Source: an uncultured bacterium (GTDB taxonomy: Bacteria; Acidobacteriota; Thermoanaerobaculia; Multivoradales; J023). From it: DNA of 64,000 bases. Position numbers and translations under genes: made by a program. The notes under the pieces are model-generated. The model was not told the DNA's origin and did no database searches. It worked only from the letters and a program-made list of their open reading frames with translations. Location: the NCBI GenBank assembly GCA_937948815.1, contig CALFAM010000153.1:2212-66211 (forward strand). Reading direction: 5' to 3'. Shown here one piece after another: positions 20,501 to 25,500 of the stretch; positions within the stretch are counted from its first letter, which is position 1; every line of letters starts with the position of its first letter.

Positions 20501-21693
20501 CGGATACCGCGACCCTCGAGGACGTCATGGTGCTCCAGCCTCTGGTGCTGCCGGACGATCCCGTATCGGAGGTTTCCGTCCGGCTCAGCCACGAGCCCAC
20601 GCCGGATGGAAGCCTCTCGTTCACAGTCGCGCCTCCGACGGCCGCATCGGCCGGCTCGCCGCACGCTGGCTTGCCCTTTGCCACGGGCCGTGCGCTGCGT
20701 ACGGAGCACCCGGCGACCGGCCCGGATGCTCCGTACGGTCGCTTGCTCGAACGAAAAGACGCTGAGATCGACGTCGCGCGCTACTACCAGCTTCTGGCTG
20801 CCCAAGGCCTCGAATACGGACCGTGCTTTCGAGGGATCGAGCGGCTCTGCTGCGAGGGGCGAACGGCGGCCGCTGAGGTCCGATTGCCGGCGAGCGTCGC
20901 CGTCCCGCACCGATTTCAGATTCACCCCGCGCTGTTGGATGCATGTTTCCAGCTGCTCGCCGCTCCTCTGCTGGAACAGCGTGACGACCTCGACACATAC
21001 GTTCCCCTGGGGCTCAGACGCGTTCATCTCGCGCGGCGACCCGGCTCGCGGGTTGTCGGCCATGCGTGCCTCGAGGCATTCGGTGAGGACGACCGCGAGG
21101 TCCTCGAAGGCGATGTGTGGCTATTCGACCCGGACGGCACGCCGTTGATGACGGTCGAAGGGCTTTCGCTGAAGCGCACGAGCCAGACGCAAATGCGTCA
21201 GCTGCAGGTGCACGCGGCTGCGTCTGTGGGTGCGGGTCCCGTGCACGATCTCGGGCTTGGTTCGATCCACCCCATTCTCGGGAGTCGGCTCGAGCGCCGG
21301 GCGGGTCGGGCTGGCGAGCACCATTGGGAGGCGATTTTCGACACCGCCGCCCCGCCACTCGATGATCTCTATCGCGTCGACAACGCGCTTCTGGTTCCGG
21401 CCGCCGCATATTGGCAACTCGCCCTGACGGCCGCTGAGCAAGTGTTTCCGGCGCTCCCTTCGTCGCCAACGTCGATCCAGGTCGAAGAGGACCTTTGGTT
21501 GGTCGACGATCAGCCGCGTGCGGTTCAAGCGTTTCTTCGAACGGAAGCCGGGGCCACGACCTTCGAGCTGCACAGTCGCGCGTTCGCTCGTCCAACGGAC
21601 GGCAAATCGTCAATCGCGGCTGTGGGTGGCGATGGTGAAGGCCGCTCATGGGTGCGCCATGGTGTCGTCACCTTTGACGCTCCCACGAGCTGA
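17497..21693 (+). CDS. Type I PKS, first part of module 2: KS-AT-DH plus the N-terminal half of a degenerate DH-like fold; no KR and no ACP
   Basis: 1398-aa ORF.
- KS: DTACSSS / [11 protein letters not shown] / [10 protein letters not shown]
- AT: GHSVGEY plus HAFHS
- DH: [31 protein letters not shown]
- From ~21268: HPILGSRLE...[23 protein letters not shown]. This matches the start of a DH hotdog, but Tyr replaces the catalytic His.
The protein ends (DAPTS*) without a carrier domain. Confidence 0.93.
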
Positions 21694-21706
21694 AAATGCG
21701 AGGTAT

Positions 21707-22135
21707 TCAAGGGCGATGGTCGGCAGTCGGTATCGTGTCCAGCCGCTCGCGAAGCCGGGCTTCTCCGCCCCCGGCCAAGCCGTTGATCCGGAATACCTCC
21801 TTGCCATCACGAAAGAGTGCGACCAGGGGGAGCGATCCTACCCGGAAGGCTTCGCGCATCGCTCGGTCCGGGAAGATGAAACGGTCGACGTCGATCTTGA
21901 CCACGCGGAGGCGGTCGGCATAGTCGCGAGCAACTTGTTGCATGGCCGGCAACTGCCGGCGGCAAGACATTCACCAGTCAGCGTAAAAATCGACAAGAAG
22001 AAATCCCTTCTGATTTGCCACGGCTTCCACCGCGACCTTCCGGTCGAGCTCGACGATGACGGTGTCTTCTGCCACGGGGGCCGAAGTAAAAAGGTTCAGA
22101 GAAGAAACGAGCAATACGGTAGCGATCAGATGCAC
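21707..22135 (-). CDS. Thioredoxin-fold selenoprotein (in-frame UGA = Sec at 21971-21973; active site W-U-M-S-C) with an N-terminal hydrophobic signal-like segment
   Basis: ORFs 21971-22195 and 21707-21970 share a frame and are separated only by TGA. The joined translation reads ...KGFLLVDFYADW-U-MSCRRQLPAMQQVARDYADRLRVVKIDVD...GSLPLVALFRDGKEVFRI. That is a complete Trx fold, including the cis-Pro region. GTG 22135 is preceded by GAGGAGG (22140-22146) and gives (M)HLIATVLLVSSLNLFTSAP. An alternative upstream start is ATG 22195. Confidence 0.8.
21938..21965 (-). promoter_or_regulatory. Candidate bacterial SECIS hairpin downstream of the thioredoxin UGA
   Basis: The minus-strand RNA reads UUGC-C-GCCGGC-AGUU-GCCGGC-CAU-GCAA. 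It has a 6-bp GC upper stem with a G/U-containing tetraloop and a 4-bp lower stem. The upper stem starts 10 nt after the UGA. Spacing and shape resemble the hairpin after the selD UGA in this window. Confidence 0.6.
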
Positions 22136-22507
22136 GGAACCTCCTCGTTGAAAGTTGTTATCGGTGTGCGTCAGAGAAGATGGGAGACGAAGCACGGAGG
22201 ATCTTCGAGCGAAGCATCACGCGCTGCGGCTGCGCTCGGAAATCCAGTAGGACCTTCTTTCCACGCGAAAGTTCTCGGAGGGCATCGAAAATCTTCTCGC
22301 GAGTGGCGTGGTTTTTCGATAGTGAGATGTGCTGTGGCGAACATGCGTTTATTGAAGGTTTTTCAATGGCCAAGCTGGGAAACCATCGATCAGGCTGATA
22401 GCATGGTAACAGTGTTCAATAGGGACGAGAGGGATCCGACTCGTCGATAAAACTTGCTGGTAACGATGCGGGGCCTCCTGGTCCTCGCGCACGGCGGAGG
22501 TGTGCCG

Positions 22508-25500
22508 ATGATTCGTTTCAGCATCATGTTTTTCTCCGCCAATGCGGAGACGCTTGGCGACGACAAATACCGCCTCGTCGTTGATGCTGCGACCTTCGCA
22601 GATCAGCACGCTTTCGAAGCTGTGTGGGTGCCCGAGCGGCACTTCGGCCTGTTGGGTGGTCTCTATCCCAACCCATCCGTGCTGCAGTCGGCATTGGCGG
22701 TCGCGACGGATCGGATTGCACTGCGTGCAGGGAGCGTCGTCTCGCCGCTGCACAACCCTATTCGAATCGCCGAAGAATGGTCCATGGTCGACAACCTCTC
22801 CGCGGGGCGTGTCGGACTCTCCTTTGCATCCGGCTGGAACCCTACTGATTTTGCACTGGCGCCAGAGCGCTACGAGCGGCGTCGCGATCTGCTGTACGAA
22901 GACCTCGAGACCGTGCAGCGTCTGTGGCGAGGGGAAGCCATCGAGGTCACCAAGGGCGGTGGCGCCTCGACCACGGTGGAGATCTATCCGAAGCCCGTTC
23001 AGGATGAGCTTCCCGTATGGATCACCGCAGCCCGCAGTCCGGAGACCTTCGAGCGTGCCGGCACCTTGGGCGTCAATGTTCTGACGCATCTCCTGGATCA
23101 AGACGTCAGTGGGTTGGCCGAGAAGATCACCATCTATCGCGACGCGCTGGCCGCCGCCGGGCACGATTCGCGTGCAGGCCGCGTCACAACAATGCTGCAT
23201 ACCTTCGTCCAGCCTGATGAGGCCGTTGCACGCGACGTCGCTCGGGATCCTTACTGTGCCTTCTTGAAGTCCAACATTCCACTGCTCAAGGGGCTTGCCG
23301 AGAGCCGTGATCAGACGGTCGATCTCGATGCGTTGTCTCCGGTCGAGCAGGACGACTTCGTACGGTTTCTTTATCAACGGTTCGCCAGTGCTCGAGCACT
23401 GATCGGGTCGCCTGAATCATGTTTGCCGCTGGTCGCGTCACTGCAAGAGATCGGTGTCGATGAGATCGCTTGTCTGCTCGACTTTGGACCCTCCAATGAC
23501 GACGTCATGTGCGGACTCCCGTCACTCCACCAACTTGCGACGGCGAGCGCTCTGGAGCTCAGAGCGGATGCTCCCTCCGAGGCGATGCCCGCTCCCGTGG
23601 TCGGTGTGACGAAGACCGTTCGCGACCGGTGCGATCGCGTTCTGGCGCCAGACGCATTCGCGCGGCAACTGGCTGCCGTAGGTCTCGAGTCGGCTCGCCA
23701 GATCCTGCCGAACATTGCGCTGAATGGGGCCGAGGCGCTGGCCGAGATCGAAGGCAGCCCGGTCCTGCATCGCCGGAAGCCGCTCGATCCCGCACTCCTC
23801 GAGACGTGTGCCGAGGCCGCACAACTCGTCGCTCCCGAGATCTTCGAGGATCGAGCTCCGCGCCTGGTTTCGCATATTGGGGCGCTCCGAGATGTGGTGC
23901 CGGATGCTGCCATTCGCTATCTACACGTTGTTCGCGTCGAGCCGGGGCAATTTCAGGTCGAGATCCGCTTTCTGGACGCGGCTGAGCGGGTGGTTGGGCG
24001 GCTGGGGTCGGTCCGCCTGCGCAAGCTCGGCAGGCCGCCGGTCGCTCTCATGGCGGCGGCGGGCGACGCCTCGAGCTTGTACTACGAGATGGCCTGGGAG
24101 GTCTGCCCCGCGGCTGCAGATCGAACATCGGTAGCTGCGACTGGCCGCGGCTGGTGCATCGTCGGTGACCGGAGTCCACTGGGTGCCAGCCTGGCGGAAG
24201 CGCTGCGGCGGACCGGTCGGAGTTGTCGCCTGATCGAGCCGGGATCGCTCCCGGAATTCTGGGCCCGACAGGATGCGGACCGCCTGGTGGGTCAGCTGTC
24301 GGAGGACGCCGAGAGCCCGAGCCATCTCGTCTACCTGCCGACCCTGGACGCACCAGTGGACCAGGCGACGAGTATCTCTTCGCTCCGACAGGCTCAGGCC
24401 ATCGGGCCGACAGCCGCGCTGCTGCTGATGCAAGCGCTGGTCGAGCGAGGAGGGGTCAAGGCGCCGAAGCTCTACCTGGTGACCCGCGCCGCGCATGCCG
24501 TCGGCGAGCAGAAGGTACCGCTTTCATCGATTCAGTCGACACTCTGGGGGCTCGGAAAGACCTGTGCCATGGAGCATCCGGAGATCTGGGGCGGTCTGGT
24601 CGACCTGGATCCGAAGGGCGACGAGCAGGCCAACACGGAGGCGCTGCTCGAAGCGCTCTTGGCGGCCGATGGCGAAGATCAGGTCGCCTTCCGCGGCGGG
24701 CAACGCTTCGTCGCACGGCTGGCGCGACGCCGTACGCCGCATCCTGCCGCACCGCCTGTCCGCCACGACGGCACCTATCTGGTCACCGGCGGCCTGTGGG
24801 GAGTCGGCCTGGAGGTATCCCGCTGGTTGCTCTCGAATGGCGCTGGTGCGCTGGTGCTCGTCGGCCGGAGTGCGCTGCCGCCCGAAGATACGTGGGACTC
24901 GCTCGAGCCAGGCACACGTGCTGCCGAGCTGGCCGGCGCGCTGCGAGGGCTGCGCAGCAACGGCGGCGACGTGCGCTACGAAGTGCTGGACGTCACCGAT
25001 GAGCCCGCGCTCGTCGCCCTGCTGGGGCAGTTGAGCGAGACAGAGAAGCCGCTGCGCGGCGTCGTGCACGCGGCCTCTGTGTGGCGGGACCGCAACGGCG
25101 AAACCCTGATACGCCCCATCCTGCAGAGCGACGCGGCCGCACTGGAGCTGGTGTTTCAGCCCAAAGTGCTCGGTACCTGGCTTCTCCACCAGCATACGAA
25201 GGAGCTTGCCCTCGATTTCTTCTGCCTGTTCTCCTCCGCGGCTTCGCTGACCGGTTCCGCGGGCCAAGGGAGCTACGCGGCGGCGAGTGGATTCTTGGAC
25301 ACCCTGGCGCACGAGCGTGCGCGCCTCGGGCTTCCCGCCCTGGCCATCAACCTCGGCCCGGTCTCTGACGCCGGCTTTGGTGCGACGAGTGAGGGGCTCA
25401 AGGTTCATACCTACTGGGAGTCCAACGGTCTGGCACGGGTGTCGCCGCCGCAGGTTCTGGAGGCGCTCGGTGCCTTGACCCAGGACGGTTCGCCGCAGGC

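Follow-up and report, generated by a model that had tools for sequence, protein, structure and literature searches.

Why should a polyketide synthase (PKS) module that has an intact dehydratase (DH) also carry a second, DH-like fold whose two halves lie on different polypeptides, with a monooxygenase between them? The window, that is, the whole stretch of 64,000 nt that was analyzed, contains one PKS module spread over two genes, g2 (17497–21693) and g3 (22508–26053). The domain order is KS-AT-DH-DH'N in g2 and LLM-DH'C-KR-ACP in g3, where DH'N and DH'C are the two hotdog halves. Judged from their sequences, g2 and g3 most likely act jointly as a single module of a cis-AT PKS, of the OcfJ/OcfI type. 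Such modules have an FMN-dependent monooxygenase of the MupA/PuwE family (LLM, alias Ox) nested between two DH-like hotdog halves, and the polypeptide breaks directly after the N-terminal half. The features of the locus are as follows:

17497–21693, plus strand: g2, KS-AT-DH with the extra N-terminal hotdog half DH'N (1398 aa; Pfam domains)
20329–21192, plus strand: intact canonical DH of g2, aa 945–1232 (PF21089 and PF14765; motifs in alignment)
21268–21690, plus strand: DH'N, from HPILG (aa 1258) to the g2 C-terminus (PF21089; alignments)
21694–22507, no strand: spacer of 814 nt from the g2 stop to the g3 start (sequence; GC 0.57 vs 0.65–0.69 in the PKS genes)
21707–22135, minus strand: thioredoxin-like ORF (thioredoxin-fold match; GTG start with a GGAGG Shine-Dalgarno)
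22496–22500, plus strand: Shine-Dalgarno GGAGG, 7 nt 5' of the g3 ATG at 22508 (read from the sequence)
22508–26053, plus strand: g3, LLM-DH'C-KR-ACP (domain matches; >100 homologues of equal architecture)
22514–23536, plus strand: luciferase-like FMN-dependent monooxygenase, LLM/Ox (TIGR04020)
23612–24040, plus strand: DH'C, C-terminal hotdog half, aa 369–511 (PF14765; alignments)
24770–25366, plus strand: KR catalytic subdomain, aa 755–953 (PF08659, 169.5 bits)
25673–25873, plus strand: ACP, aa 1056–1122, with Ser1086 in GVDSL (PF00550, 48.2 bits)

The KS motifs DTACSSS, EAHGTGT, and KTNIGH and the AT motif GHSxG are all present in g2, and a Pfam scan found no KR or ACP in it. The original prediction, made from the DNA alone, had g2 ending in the start of a DH. 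Indeed, the tail scanned by itself (21220–21690) matches PF21089 with 49.6 bits (E = 4e-13) over the full model, positions 1–103 of 103, and it ends at the same point as the homologous upstream subunits in the alignment. The intact DH that the prediction placed upstream was also found, with matches to PF21089 (aa 945–1044) and PF14765 (aa 1085–1232), the catalytic residues His975 (20419–20421) and Asp1148 (20938–20940), and the motifs DHRVHG, EYGPCF (the YGP is thus kept), and a third of 10 residues (not shown). In an alignment of DH'N with homologues and the window's three canonical DHs, the position of the catalytic His is occupied by Tyr1292 (TAT, 21370–21372), as had been proposed, and the glycine of HxxxG by Asn.

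ATG 22508 was taken as the start of g3 by comparison with 30 homologues, which begin with MxFxxMFF. As expected, the protein opens with the LLM, which is of the MupA/Atu3671 type (TIGR04020, 480.9 bits; cut-off 244). This domain is 48% identical to the OX domain of PuwE (PDB 6KET; TM 0.94) and retains every family-invariant residue in the LLM alignment. The second hotdog half follows; scanned alone, it matches PS-DH PF14765 with 26.8 bits (E = 4e-6; cut-off 23.7). Its motif LDPALLETCAE places Glu432 (GAG, 23801–23803) at the catalytic Asp of HPxLLDxxxQ, and no YGP motif is found in DH'C in the alignment with the canonical DHs of the window and homologues, both as claimed. A KR, whose structural subdomain begins at about aa 560, and an ACP complete the protein in the predicted order.

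DH'N and DH'C are homologous halves of the PKS DH fold, and the nested fold of the window lacks the catalytic His (Tyr), the Asp (Glu), and the YGP tyrosine. The profile scan that had been proposed as a check and a structure prediction of the two halves in one chain both return the PKS DH fold. AF2 models the joined halves with pLDDT 88.5 and pTM 0.87, in an artificial single chain that favors assembly. Foldseek aligns it over about 310 columns with the DHs of CurK, CurF, MAS-like, and MlnB, with E down to 3e-17 and TM up to 0.76. Further fold matches are 6K97, in which the split DH of cremimycin has been fused artificially, GphF DH1, and the SorB pyran synthase 6B2V. The joined halves are confidently predicted to be a PKS DH double hotdog. 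The central claim, a DH-like double hotdog split over two polypeptides with an LLM between, is thus borne out by the HMMs, the catalytic alignment, and the model.

Could the split or the spacer be an assembly artefact, arising for example from a chimeric join or from an indel with a false stop as its result? The window comes from a 67-kb metagenome-type contig, and some related contigs, such as L006, do have indel errors. However, the same boundary, with a stop after DH_N and a start at the LLM, recurs in 31 independent loci, some of them in complete genomes of Burkholderia. Furthermore, an independent Logan assembly of run ERR9287621 (L090) matches window positions 18893–22484 at 99.9% identity, which takes in the g2 stop, the entire antisense gene, and the spacer to ≤24 nt from the g3 ATG. 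A plus-strand shadow ORF at 21518–22450, in the frame of g3, has no PKS-like content. An artefact is therefore very improbable.

Some properties were seen only by comparison with homologues: a widespread family that includes OcfJ/OcfI, the presence of His and Asp in most of its members, and a split point that is ancestral. More than 100 proteins share the LLM-DH_C-KR-ACP architecture, with Burkholderia, Streptomyces, Corallococcus, Acidobacterium, and cyanobacteria as sources. In the 90 loci compared, 37 DH_N-LLM-DH_C triads were counted. The two halves flank the LLM together in every locus whose contig permits checking, and the three domains always travel together in the family; the pattern is far above chance, since the LLM is flanked by both halves in each of 37 independent loci. 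The triad LLMs form one clade relative to NRPS-type LLMs, and the family is apparently of single origin. Thirty-one triads are split at one same point, and 5–6 are fused in long clean ORFs; contiguous homologues, the search for which had been suggested, include L005, L028, L031, and L035, with DH_N-LLM-DH_C in one long ORF. In about 27 of the 31 split triads, the genes overlap by 1–35 nt or have a gap of <75 nt. The chain thus breaks where the family had its gene boundary ancestrally, with overlapping or abutting genes as the norm; on this score, only the 0.8-kb spacer is unusual in the window.

The catalytic residues vary within the family. His and Asp are both retained in 24 of the 37 triads, and the YGP is gone in 36. 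Seven of nine Asp replacements are Glu, and Tyr takes the place of His in four of the seven aligned non-His cases, with at least three lineages of origin; other lineages have Pro, Gly, or Asp there. Several lineages have lost His or Asp independently of one another, and both halves are nonetheless always retained. Because most members still have His and Asp, the dead catalytic state is, as judged from the alignments, a feature of lineages and not of the whole family. DH'N scores 77.7 bits against a leave-one-out triad HMM vs 50.5 against a canonical-DH HMM, and DH'C 43.1 vs 13.1, respectively; DH'C is the most divergent DH_C in the family, with 43 bits vs 95–188 in the other members. Three peculiarities distinguish the window: the Tyr/Glu pair, the 814-nt spacer with its antisense gene, and the intact DH upstream of the degenerate half, which among the triad loci compared occurs elsewhere only in the sister locus L013 (64% LLM identity), also in tandem with a Tyr-bearing DH'N.

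The spacer, correctly described at the outset as about 0.8 kb with an antisense gene, measures 760 nt to the first possible start (TTG 22454) and 814 nt to the homology-supported ATG. Besides the thioredoxin-like gene, it contains divergent non-coding DNA of about 370 nt. The thioredoxin-like ORF has an in-frame TGA (plus-strand 21971–21973) at the first Cys of CxxC (W-U-M-S-C), and a hairpin, GCCGGC-AGUU-GCCGGC, begins about 11 nt 3' of it. Its N-terminus resembles a signal peptide, and SelA and tRNA-Sec genes lie in the same window. The gene probably encodes a selenocysteine-containing thioredoxin-like protein, and it is a neighbor, outside the PKS module. Has its insertion uncoupled the subunits, leaving a module in decay? 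The long spacer, the degeneracy of DH', and the low GC of the LLM would then be signs of a cluster turning into a pseudogene. The spacer is the longest among the 31 split cases, no antisense gene is found in the other long gaps examined (L013 and L043), translational coupling is gone, DH'C is highly divergent, and one relative (L015) has a TAG inside its LLM. On the other hand, the 7.7 kb of g2 and g3 are free of frameshifts and stops, the KS, AT, KR, and ACP motifs and the family-invariant LLM residues are intact, GC3 is high (0.75–0.78), and g3 has a strong GGAGG-ATG start. The insertion falls exactly between stop and start with both ORFs undamaged, and the g2/g3-type genes of L013 also do not overlap, having a 210-nt gap. 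We consider decay to be quite unlikely.

The closest known system is OcfJ/OcfI of the occidiofungin/burkholdine cluster (Burkholderia contaminans/ambifaria, Bamb_6478/6477; L007), with the same layout and split point, KS-AT-DH_N followed by LLM-DH_C-KR-ACP, and an LLM of the same TIGR04020 type. That pathway begins with a FAAL-ACP, as does the one in the window, where it is g1. Over LLM and DH_C, this system is about 45% identical to the window. Unlike g2, OcfJ lacks a further, intact DH; the split DH retains both His and Asp, and the two genes overlap (ATGA), whereas those of the window are 814 nt apart. The accessible literature, where OcfI is a 'flavin-dependent monooxygenase' and OcfJ an 'NRP synthetase', makes no mention of the split DH. 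The NAA2 residue of occidiofungin has C5-OH, C6-OH, and C7-O-xylose and no double bond; the C6-OH is at the site expected from α-hydroxylation by the OcfJ/OcfI module. The absence of a double bond, though OcfJ/OcfI keep His and Asp, fits ketoreduction and α-hydroxylation without dehydration.

Other systems share single aspects of this arrangement. In cremimycin CmiP2/CmiP3 (PDB 6K97), a cis-AT DH double hotdog is also cut between the C- and N-termini of two subunits, and the joined halves, a structural match of those in the window, fold as a normal DH (PMC11284099). However, they are an active dehydratase with nothing inserted, while in the window the second half comes after an LLM of 340 residues, and the catalytic residues have been substituted. 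The Ox domains of PuwE, MupA, and the palmerolide, microginin, and myxothiazol type belong to the same TIGR04020 family as the LLM, with α-hydroxylation of carrier-bound thioesters as their assigned chemistry; these stand alone, follow an ACP or aminotransferase, or lie in NRPS modules. For none of them has nesting within a DH fold, or a position at the N-terminus of a split module, been described. The RhiE branching (B) domain, pyran synthases, and enoyl isomerases are PKS double hotdogs with altered catalytic residues and scaffold roles or other chemistry (PMC9113145). They are single continuous domains with no inserted oxygenase, in contrast to the split, LLM-bearing fold of the window. To our knowledge, the pyran synthases and isomerases keep the His. 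Trans-AT synthases with intramodular 'split modules' and DHD docking have the junction within a module and beside a DH-type fold, as in the window, but it falls between whole domains, and docking is by short helices or by a disordered tail bound to the DH surface, whereas this cis-AT module is cut through a domain. A 2021 docking review gives cis-AT junctions as predominantly intermodular.

What, then, is the function of the nested fold? We think it rather probable that the LLM hydroxylates the α-carbon of the ACP-bound chain and that the degenerate DH' is a structural unit, rebuilt across both proteins and holding them together. DH' would no longer dehydrate. DH'N and DH'C would reassemble across the g2/g3 interface by fold complementation, linking the KS-AT-DH subunit to the LLM-KR-ACP subunit and setting the LLM at the position of the reductive loop, with the ACP within reach. 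The split DH halves of cremimycin reconstitute an active fold (PMC11284099). With reduced flavin and O2, the LLM would then α-hydroxylate the ACP-bound intermediate. The C6-OH in the fatty amino acid of occidiofungin has been deduced to arise in this way, as has the 2-hydroxyl that PuwE introduces; PuwE is assigned the 2-hydroxylation of the 3-amino-2-hydroxy fatty acid (PMC4219810), and MupA is an α-hydroxylase (PMC10952193). Any dehydration in the module would be performed by the separate intact DH of g2, and its presence makes the reaction order and product uncertain. In most relatives, the two genes would be translationally coupled. Since g2 and g3 are now separated by the convergent antisense gene, g3 probably has its own promoter and is translated from its own strong Shine-Dalgarno; the loss of coupling makes stoichiometric assembly less assured.

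The loss of the YGP in 36 of 37 triads and the losses of His or Asp with both halves retained appear to favor the structural role. Furthermore, the split state seems tied to the DH halves: all 31 split cases carry them, and every PKS-type LLM module that lacks them is encoded in a single ORF. The modules of this latter kind comprise seven LLM domains in L014, L020, L021, L029 (two), L034, and L076, and the proteins P0181, P0203, and P0008. This link may, however, be mere history, from insertion of an LLM gene into a DH.

Of the roles originally offered, the scaffold or docking interface is thus the one favored by the comparative data. The other, a repurposed catalyst, we consider somewhat unlikely. 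Here, the Tyr/Glu pair (elsewhere His/Asp) in the hotdog tunnel would bind the ACP-bound chain and cooperate with the LLM or the upstream DH, in enolization for hydroxylation, a double-bond shift, or processing of the α-hydroxy group; for example, α-hydroxylation followed by β-dehydration would give an α-keto unit. The retention of His and Asp in most triads, although occidiofungin, the sole characterized product, is undehydrated, together with the recurrent, non-random replacements, could mean conserved chemistry. Asp to Glu keeps the carboxylate, so the pattern may reflect a chemical role and not pure scaffolding; FabZ-type hotdog dehydratases use Glu. The tandem shared with L013 points the same way, and isomerase, pyran synthase, and product template roles are known for DH-like domains, several of them among the Foldseek matches. 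However, each of the two replacements takes only one nucleotide change and conserves size or charge, so that both could be tolerated on structural grounds alone; almost no member retains the YGP tyrosine, and other lineages have Pro, Gly, or Asp at the His position. The divergence of DH'C in the window looks like relaxed constraint, and the LLM functions with no DH-like partner in P0181, P0203, P0008, the PuwE context, and stand-alone MupA. We therefore prefer the structural role for DH'. The DH_N-LLM-DH_C layout is widespread, has apparently not been described before, and is present also in the pathway to the antifungal occidiofungin.

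The window contains five PKS genes, g1 to g5, on the plus strand.

8642–17500, plus strand: g1, FAAL-ACP-KS-AT-DH-ER-KR-ACP
17497–21693, plus strand: g2, KS-AT-DH followed by an extra tail
22508–26053, plus strand: g3, LLM (luciferase-like monooxygenase), DH-like segment, KR, ACP
26055–30935, plus strand: g4, KS-AT-KR-ACP
30939–38930, plus strand: g5, KS-AT, inserted domain, DH-KR-ACP, hydrolase

The domains of g2 and g3 make up one cis-AT PKS module. According to the original prediction, this module has, besides an intact DH, a degenerate DH-like fold (DH′), of which the N-terminal half (DH′N, 21268–21690) is the g2 tail and the C-terminal half (DH′C, 23612–24040) lies in g3, behind the LLM (22514–23536). 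Pfam matches and alignment confirmed this description. The g2 tail alone matches PF21089, the N-half of PKS dehydratases, over the whole length of the model with 49.6 bits (E 4e-13), and the g3 segment after the LLM matches PF14765, the C-half, with 26.8 bits (E 4e-6). The other DH of g2 is complete, with all motifs present. Aligning both halves to homologues and to the window's three canonical DHs gave the catalytic positions. In the HxxxGxxxxP motif of DH′N, Tyr1292 (21370–21372) occupies the position of the catalytic His and Asn that of Gly, while Pro is kept. The HPxLLDxxxQ motif of DH′C reads LDPALLETCAE; Glu432 (23801–23803) takes the place of the catalytic Asp, Asp that of His, and Glu that of Gln. 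The YGP position reads ESA, with nothing YGP-like there. The expected changes, Tyr for the catalytic His, Glu for Asp, and no YGP, are thus borne out, and these replacements argue against dehydratase activity of DH′. We also considered that the segment after the LLM might be the structural subdomain of the KR, but this was ruled out by the PS-DH match and the alignment, and that subdomain begins at about residue 560.

An AF2 model in which the g2 tail was joined directly to the post-LLM segment gave a confident DH double hotdog (pLDDT 88.5, pTM 0.87). This model was the second of two, without the LLM; it is a single artificial chain and carries no coevolution signal between the halves. Like the model that contains the LLM, it speaks only for compatibility with a double hotdog and not for the assembly of two proteins. 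In Foldseek, its alignments to complete PKS DH structures span about 310 columns. Among these are CurK and CurF (E about 3e-17), MlnB (TM 0.76), and an MAS-like PKS (E about 1e-17); the cremimycin split DH in its artificially fused form (6K97) matched as well. By the family matches and this model, DH′N and DH′C are the two halves of one PKS DH fold.

The N-terminus of g3 is a MupA/Atu3671-type FMN-dependent LLM, scoring 480.9 bits with TIGR04020 (curated cut-off 244.45 bits) over model positions 1–340 of 341. In the AF2 model with the LLM kept between the halves, the LLM itself has a pLDDT of about 95. Foldseek aligned the window LLM with the OX domain of PuwE (6KET) with E 9e-42, TM 0.94, and 48% identity; only LLM structures were among the matches listed for this model, and the search is uninformative on the packing of the hotdog halves. 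The view that g3 starts with a luciferase-like monooxygenase therefore holds, both by the TIGR04020 score and by a TIM-barrel fold like that of 6KET. PuwE OX has been assigned a 2-hydroxylation (PMC4219810), and MupA is an α-hydroxylase (PMC10952193). From these assignments and the structure of occidiofungin, discussed below, we infer that the LLM would catalyze FMNH2/O2-dependent hydroxylation of a carrier-bound thioester, and by analogy it is probably an α-hydroxylase.

Protein searches with the N-terminal part of g3, and then with an artificial fusion of the tail and g3, gave more than 100 proteins of about 1100 residues with LLM, PS-DH, KR, and ACP. Burkholderia accounts for clusters of 100–190 members; the other sources are Paraburkholderia, Streptomyces, Corallococcus, Acidobacterium, and cyanobacteria. 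The C-terminal variants are ACP, ACP-TE, ACP-C, and cMT-ACP. In every gene context fetched, a lone DH N-half closes the upstream gene, which overlaps or abuts the LLM gene. A metagenome scan added 80 more loci. A scan of genome contigs with the window protein gave a single locus, with 52% identity, and a profile search with DH_N tails gave only 30 proteins, mostly fragments, which were uninformative on architecture. When 90 loci were searched with HMMs built for DH_N, LLM, and DH_C, 37 triads in the order DH_N-LLM-DH_C were found, and both halves flank the LLM wherever the contig extends far enough. In the window, these HMMs place DH_N at 21268–21672, LLM at 22511–23491, and DH_C at 23609–24022, an order common to 36 other loci.

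The triads are split between DH_N and LLM in 31 of 37 cases, and about 27 of these 31 have an overlap of 1–35 nt or a gap of less than 75 nt. The other 5–6 are one fused ORF. A search for homologues with contiguous domains found DH_N-LLM-DH_C within long, clean ORFs, of 1700 to more than 3100 residues, at four loci, L005, L028, L031, and L035. Protein P0152 was rejected as a natural fused form, since on contig L006, where it lies, the neighboring KS is broken by several frameshift errors; the evidence for fused forms rests on the other four. The window genes are divided at the usual place: g2 ends at a position homologous to the end of upstream subunits in its relatives, a few residues past the last DH_N strand, and g3 begins with MIRFSIMFF, the first LLM strand, in the family start pattern MxFxxMFF.

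Several loci depart from the common form. At L009 (2–2866), the KS runs almost straight into DH_N, without an AT, which looks like a trans-AT-style form of the split module. In a cyanobacterial form (L003 and L004; Scytonema sp. PCC 10023 plus a metagenome contig related to it), an LLM-DH_C-ACP protein of 687 residues is directly followed by a large NRPS, and a DH_N fragment ends 12 nt 5′ of the LLM start. At L015, an in-frame TAG (6271–6273) replaces the Ser/Ala codon of EEW(S/A)MVDN inside the LLM of a gene that is otherwise like ocfI of the occidiofungin cluster; the gene is either a pseudogene or affected by a sequencing error.

In a neighbor-joining tree that includes three NRPS-type LLMs for comparison, the LLMs of the triads fall into a single clade, and the window lies within this clade, as sister to the locus L013. 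In a leave-one-out comparison, the halves of DH′ score higher with the triad HMMs than with the canonical DH HMMs (77.7 vs 50.5 bits for DH′N and 43.1 vs 13.1 bits for DH′C), while the canonical DH of g2, as a control, prefers the canonical HMM. Thus, DH′ is an inherited part of the module type rather than a decayed copy of the neighboring DH. The window module belongs to a widespread type, combining a split DH with an integrated Ox domain, and is not a one-off oddity; we hold its architecture and family membership with high confidence. In the searchable literature, which leaves out most subscription journals, we found no account of an LLM placed inside a split DH; such an absence is weak evidence.

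One relative is characterized, the occidiofungin cluster of Burkholderia ambifaria (L007). Its genes are, in order, a thioesterase, an epimerase, a transaminase, a TauD-type enzyme, a FAAL-ACP-KS-AT-DH_N protein of 1474 residues, an LLM-DH_C-KR-ACP protein of 1107 residues, and a large PKS-NRPS. The two split-module genes agree in size with ocfJ (4428 bp) and ocfI (3324 bp), whose published annotation goes no further than ‘NRP synthetase’ and ‘flavin-dependent monooxygenase’, respectively (PMC9494966, PMC10100970). Tabulated NMR data give the fatty amino acid NAA2 as C3-N, C4-H2, C5-OH, C6-OH, and C7-O (PMC10897925). If collinearity is assumed, the first extension would supply C7, as its KR-reduced β-carbon, and C6, as its α-carbon, and C5 would be the β-carbon of the next module. 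On this mapping, the C6 hydroxyl would be the mark of α-hydroxylation by the OcfI LLM, a reading that agrees with the roles of the PuwE OX domain and MupA. NAA2 has no double bond, so the split DH of OcfJ/OcfI appears not to dehydrate there, although its His and Asp are both kept.

What is the function of DH′ in such a module? The catalytic His is kept in 28 of the 37 triads, Asp likewise in 28, and both in 24, while YGP is kept in only one and lost in 36. Tyr replaces His in four triads (the window, L013, L017, and L031), a change spread over three or more distinct tree branches, and seven of the nine replacements of Asp are by Glu. The window shares its Tyr/Glu state with L017, and its DH′C is the most divergent of the family, with 43 bits in the triad HMM vs 95–188 in the other members. 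The nonrandom replacements may reflect either mutational proximity or residual function. A residual chemical role of DH′ would fit the retention of the carboxylate by Glu and the recurrence of Tyr; we consider it improbable, but these patterns are the chief reservation about the structural reading that follows.

Three comparative observations point instead to a structural role. Both DH halves are retained in all triads, even where His, Asp, or both have been lost. The halves are present in all 31 split modules. Finally, PKS-type LLM modules without DH halves are all single polypeptides; they comprise seven LLM domains, at L014, L020, L021, L029 (two), L034, and L076, and proteins P0181, P0203, and P0008, in which the AT leads straight into the LLM, followed by the KR. 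An LLM can thus be part of a module that lacks the DH fold, whereas no divided module is without it.

There are also precedents for such a function. The cremimycin DH is divided between CmiP2 and CmiP3; once joined, its halves fold normally and have activity (PMC11284099, citing Kawasaki et al. 2019). As in cremimycin, the DH halves of the window are on consecutive polypeptides, but here His, Asp, and YGP have been replaced. The branching domain of RhiE indicates that a DH-like double hotdog is usable as a scaffold (PMC9113145). In the same review of docking, cis-AT junctions are mostly intermodular, and domain complementation is not among the mechanisms listed. On the comparative observations and the cremimycin and RhiE precedents, we favor the view that g2 and g3 are held to each other by fold complementation, and it is somewhat more probable than otherwise that the degenerate DH′ serves as a scaffold or docking interface. 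The halves of DH′ would re-fold across the two proteins and hold them together, and the LLM would α-hydroxylate the intermediate.

The window differs from most of its family in two respects. First, the intact DH directly precedes DH′N in g2, which is seen elsewhere among the 37 triads only in L013, the sister locus in the LLM tree (64% identity), which also has Tyr at the His position. L013 (1–8749, soil metagenome Ga0134121_10001760) has an intact DH C-half, the Tyr-bearing DH′N, a gap, and LLM-DH′C; in its next module (7493–8745), DH_N is followed by an LLM in another frame, making two such units in a row. Since KR, an active DH, and an α-hydroxylase are present in one module, the product of the window module could be an α-hydroxy-enoyl, an α-keto (by hydroxylation, reduction, then dehydration), or an epoxide unit.

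Second, the spacer between g2 and g3 is 814 nt, the longest among the split triads, compared with 210 nt of noncoding, nonoverlapping sequence in L013 and 542 nt in L043. The predicted separation of about 0.8 kb with an antisense gene is real: an independent Logan assembly of run ERR9287621 covers 18893–22484 with 99.9% identity, ending 24 nt before the ATG of g3, so the arrangement of g2, the antisense gene, and the spacer is not an artifact of one assembly. In neither of the two other long gaps inspected, those of L013 and L043, did we see an antisense gene. The GC content of the spacer is 0.57, compared with 0.65–0.69 in the PKS genes, and g3 has its own GGAGG-ATG start. Because g2 stops and g3 starts at the positions usual for the family, the extra DNA lies exactly between the genes, with neither damaged. 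A promoter and terminator scan and a repeat search of the spacer gave nothing usable, and no terminal repeats marking a mobile element. A hidden frameshift or read-through from g2 to g3 was rejected: the plus-strand ORF at 21518–22450, in the frame of g3 and ending 4 nt before TTG 22454, has no Pfam match and is an antisense shadow of the antisense gene. The same applies to the minus-strand ORF at 22349–23377. The LLM-coding part of g3 (22508–23560) has a GC content of 0.60 and GC3 of 0.69, while the flanking PKS sequence has 0.65–0.69 and 0.73–0.79; SelA (0.60) and the antisense gene (0.59) have values near that of the LLM part.

The antisense gene is considered here together with two features elsewhere in the window.

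22135–21707, minus strand: thioredoxin-like ORF (PF00085, 56 bits with the stop read as Cys)
44268–45683, minus strand: SelA (PF03841, 439 bits)
45874–45968, plus strand: tRNA-Sec (Rfam, 67 bits; ARAGORN anticodon TCA)

The ORF has a GTG start, a GGAGG Shine-Dalgarno sequence, and a signal-peptide-like N-terminus. An in-frame TGA (21971–21973) falls exactly at the first Cys of CxxC (VDFYADW-U-MSC, where Cys homologues have VDFWAPWCGPC), and the public gene calls contain only the 87-residue part after it (P0255). SelA and tRNA-Sec adjoin, about 22 kb from this gene. A GC hairpin of 6 bp starts about 11 nt 3′ of the TGA; against shuffled sequences, the energy of its fold does not stand out (z-score not significant), and Rfam gave no match to a SECIS family, only tRNA-Sec. 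The ORF most likely encodes a selenocysteine-containing protein; selenocysteine-containing thioredoxin-like proteins are a known kind. We saw no evidence in the window for a functional tie of this gene to the PKS.

Two further features of the window lie in or next to the PKS genes. The insert between AT and DH of the last module, at residues 969–1233 of g5 (33843–34637, plus strand), resembles the C-terminal part of phosphatidylglycerol lysyltransferase (PF09924, E 5e-16), which is unusual for a PKS. After the PKS genes (38566–44277) are a fatty-acid-hydroxylase-family protein, an LCM-type methyltransferase on the minus strand, a LysR regulator, and a GT87-family membrane glycosyltransferase, which are probable tailoring genes. 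Together with the FAAL start, they suggest that the product is a hydroxylated, possibly glycosylated, lipid-like polyketide.

A bolder proposal is that the DH′ fold around the LLM is not a relic but a device kept for a purpose, either portable docking or an auxiliary site; we think this unlikely. As a docking device, it would provide portable, high-affinity fold complementation by which cis-AT PKS modules could be cut inside a domain. As a site, Tyr and Glu, elsewhere His and Asp, would work together with the LLM. In the lineage of the window and L013, DH′ with the extra intact DH might then give an α-oxygenated unit beyond a simple α-hydroxyl, for example α-keto or 2-hydroxy-3-enoyl. Either variant, if true, would be a new kind of PKS processing unit, found in clusters numbering in the hundreds.

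If our preferred reading, a degenerate DH that joins g2 and g3 around an α-hydroxylating LLM, is right, a conserved module type has been annotated piecemeal, as ‘flavin monooxygenase’, ‘bifunctional LLM/SDR oxidoreductase’, or ‘NRP synthetase’. Genome miners could then predict α-hydroxylation without dehydration at a defined carbon from the DH_N/LLM-DH_C signature, which is present in more than 100 clusters of Burkholderia, Streptomyces, myxobacteria, Acidobacteria, and cyanobacteria, and where the rule-based predictors now in use are likely to report a DH that is inactive or partial. A re-folding split domain would also be a docking principle unlike the helical docking domains now used in cis-AT PKS engineering, with the natural fused and split forms of the same module as ready-made controls. 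With an intact DH added to the same module, the chemistry of the window and L013 is not predictable from occidiofungin, and the product of this subgroup would be worth isolating.
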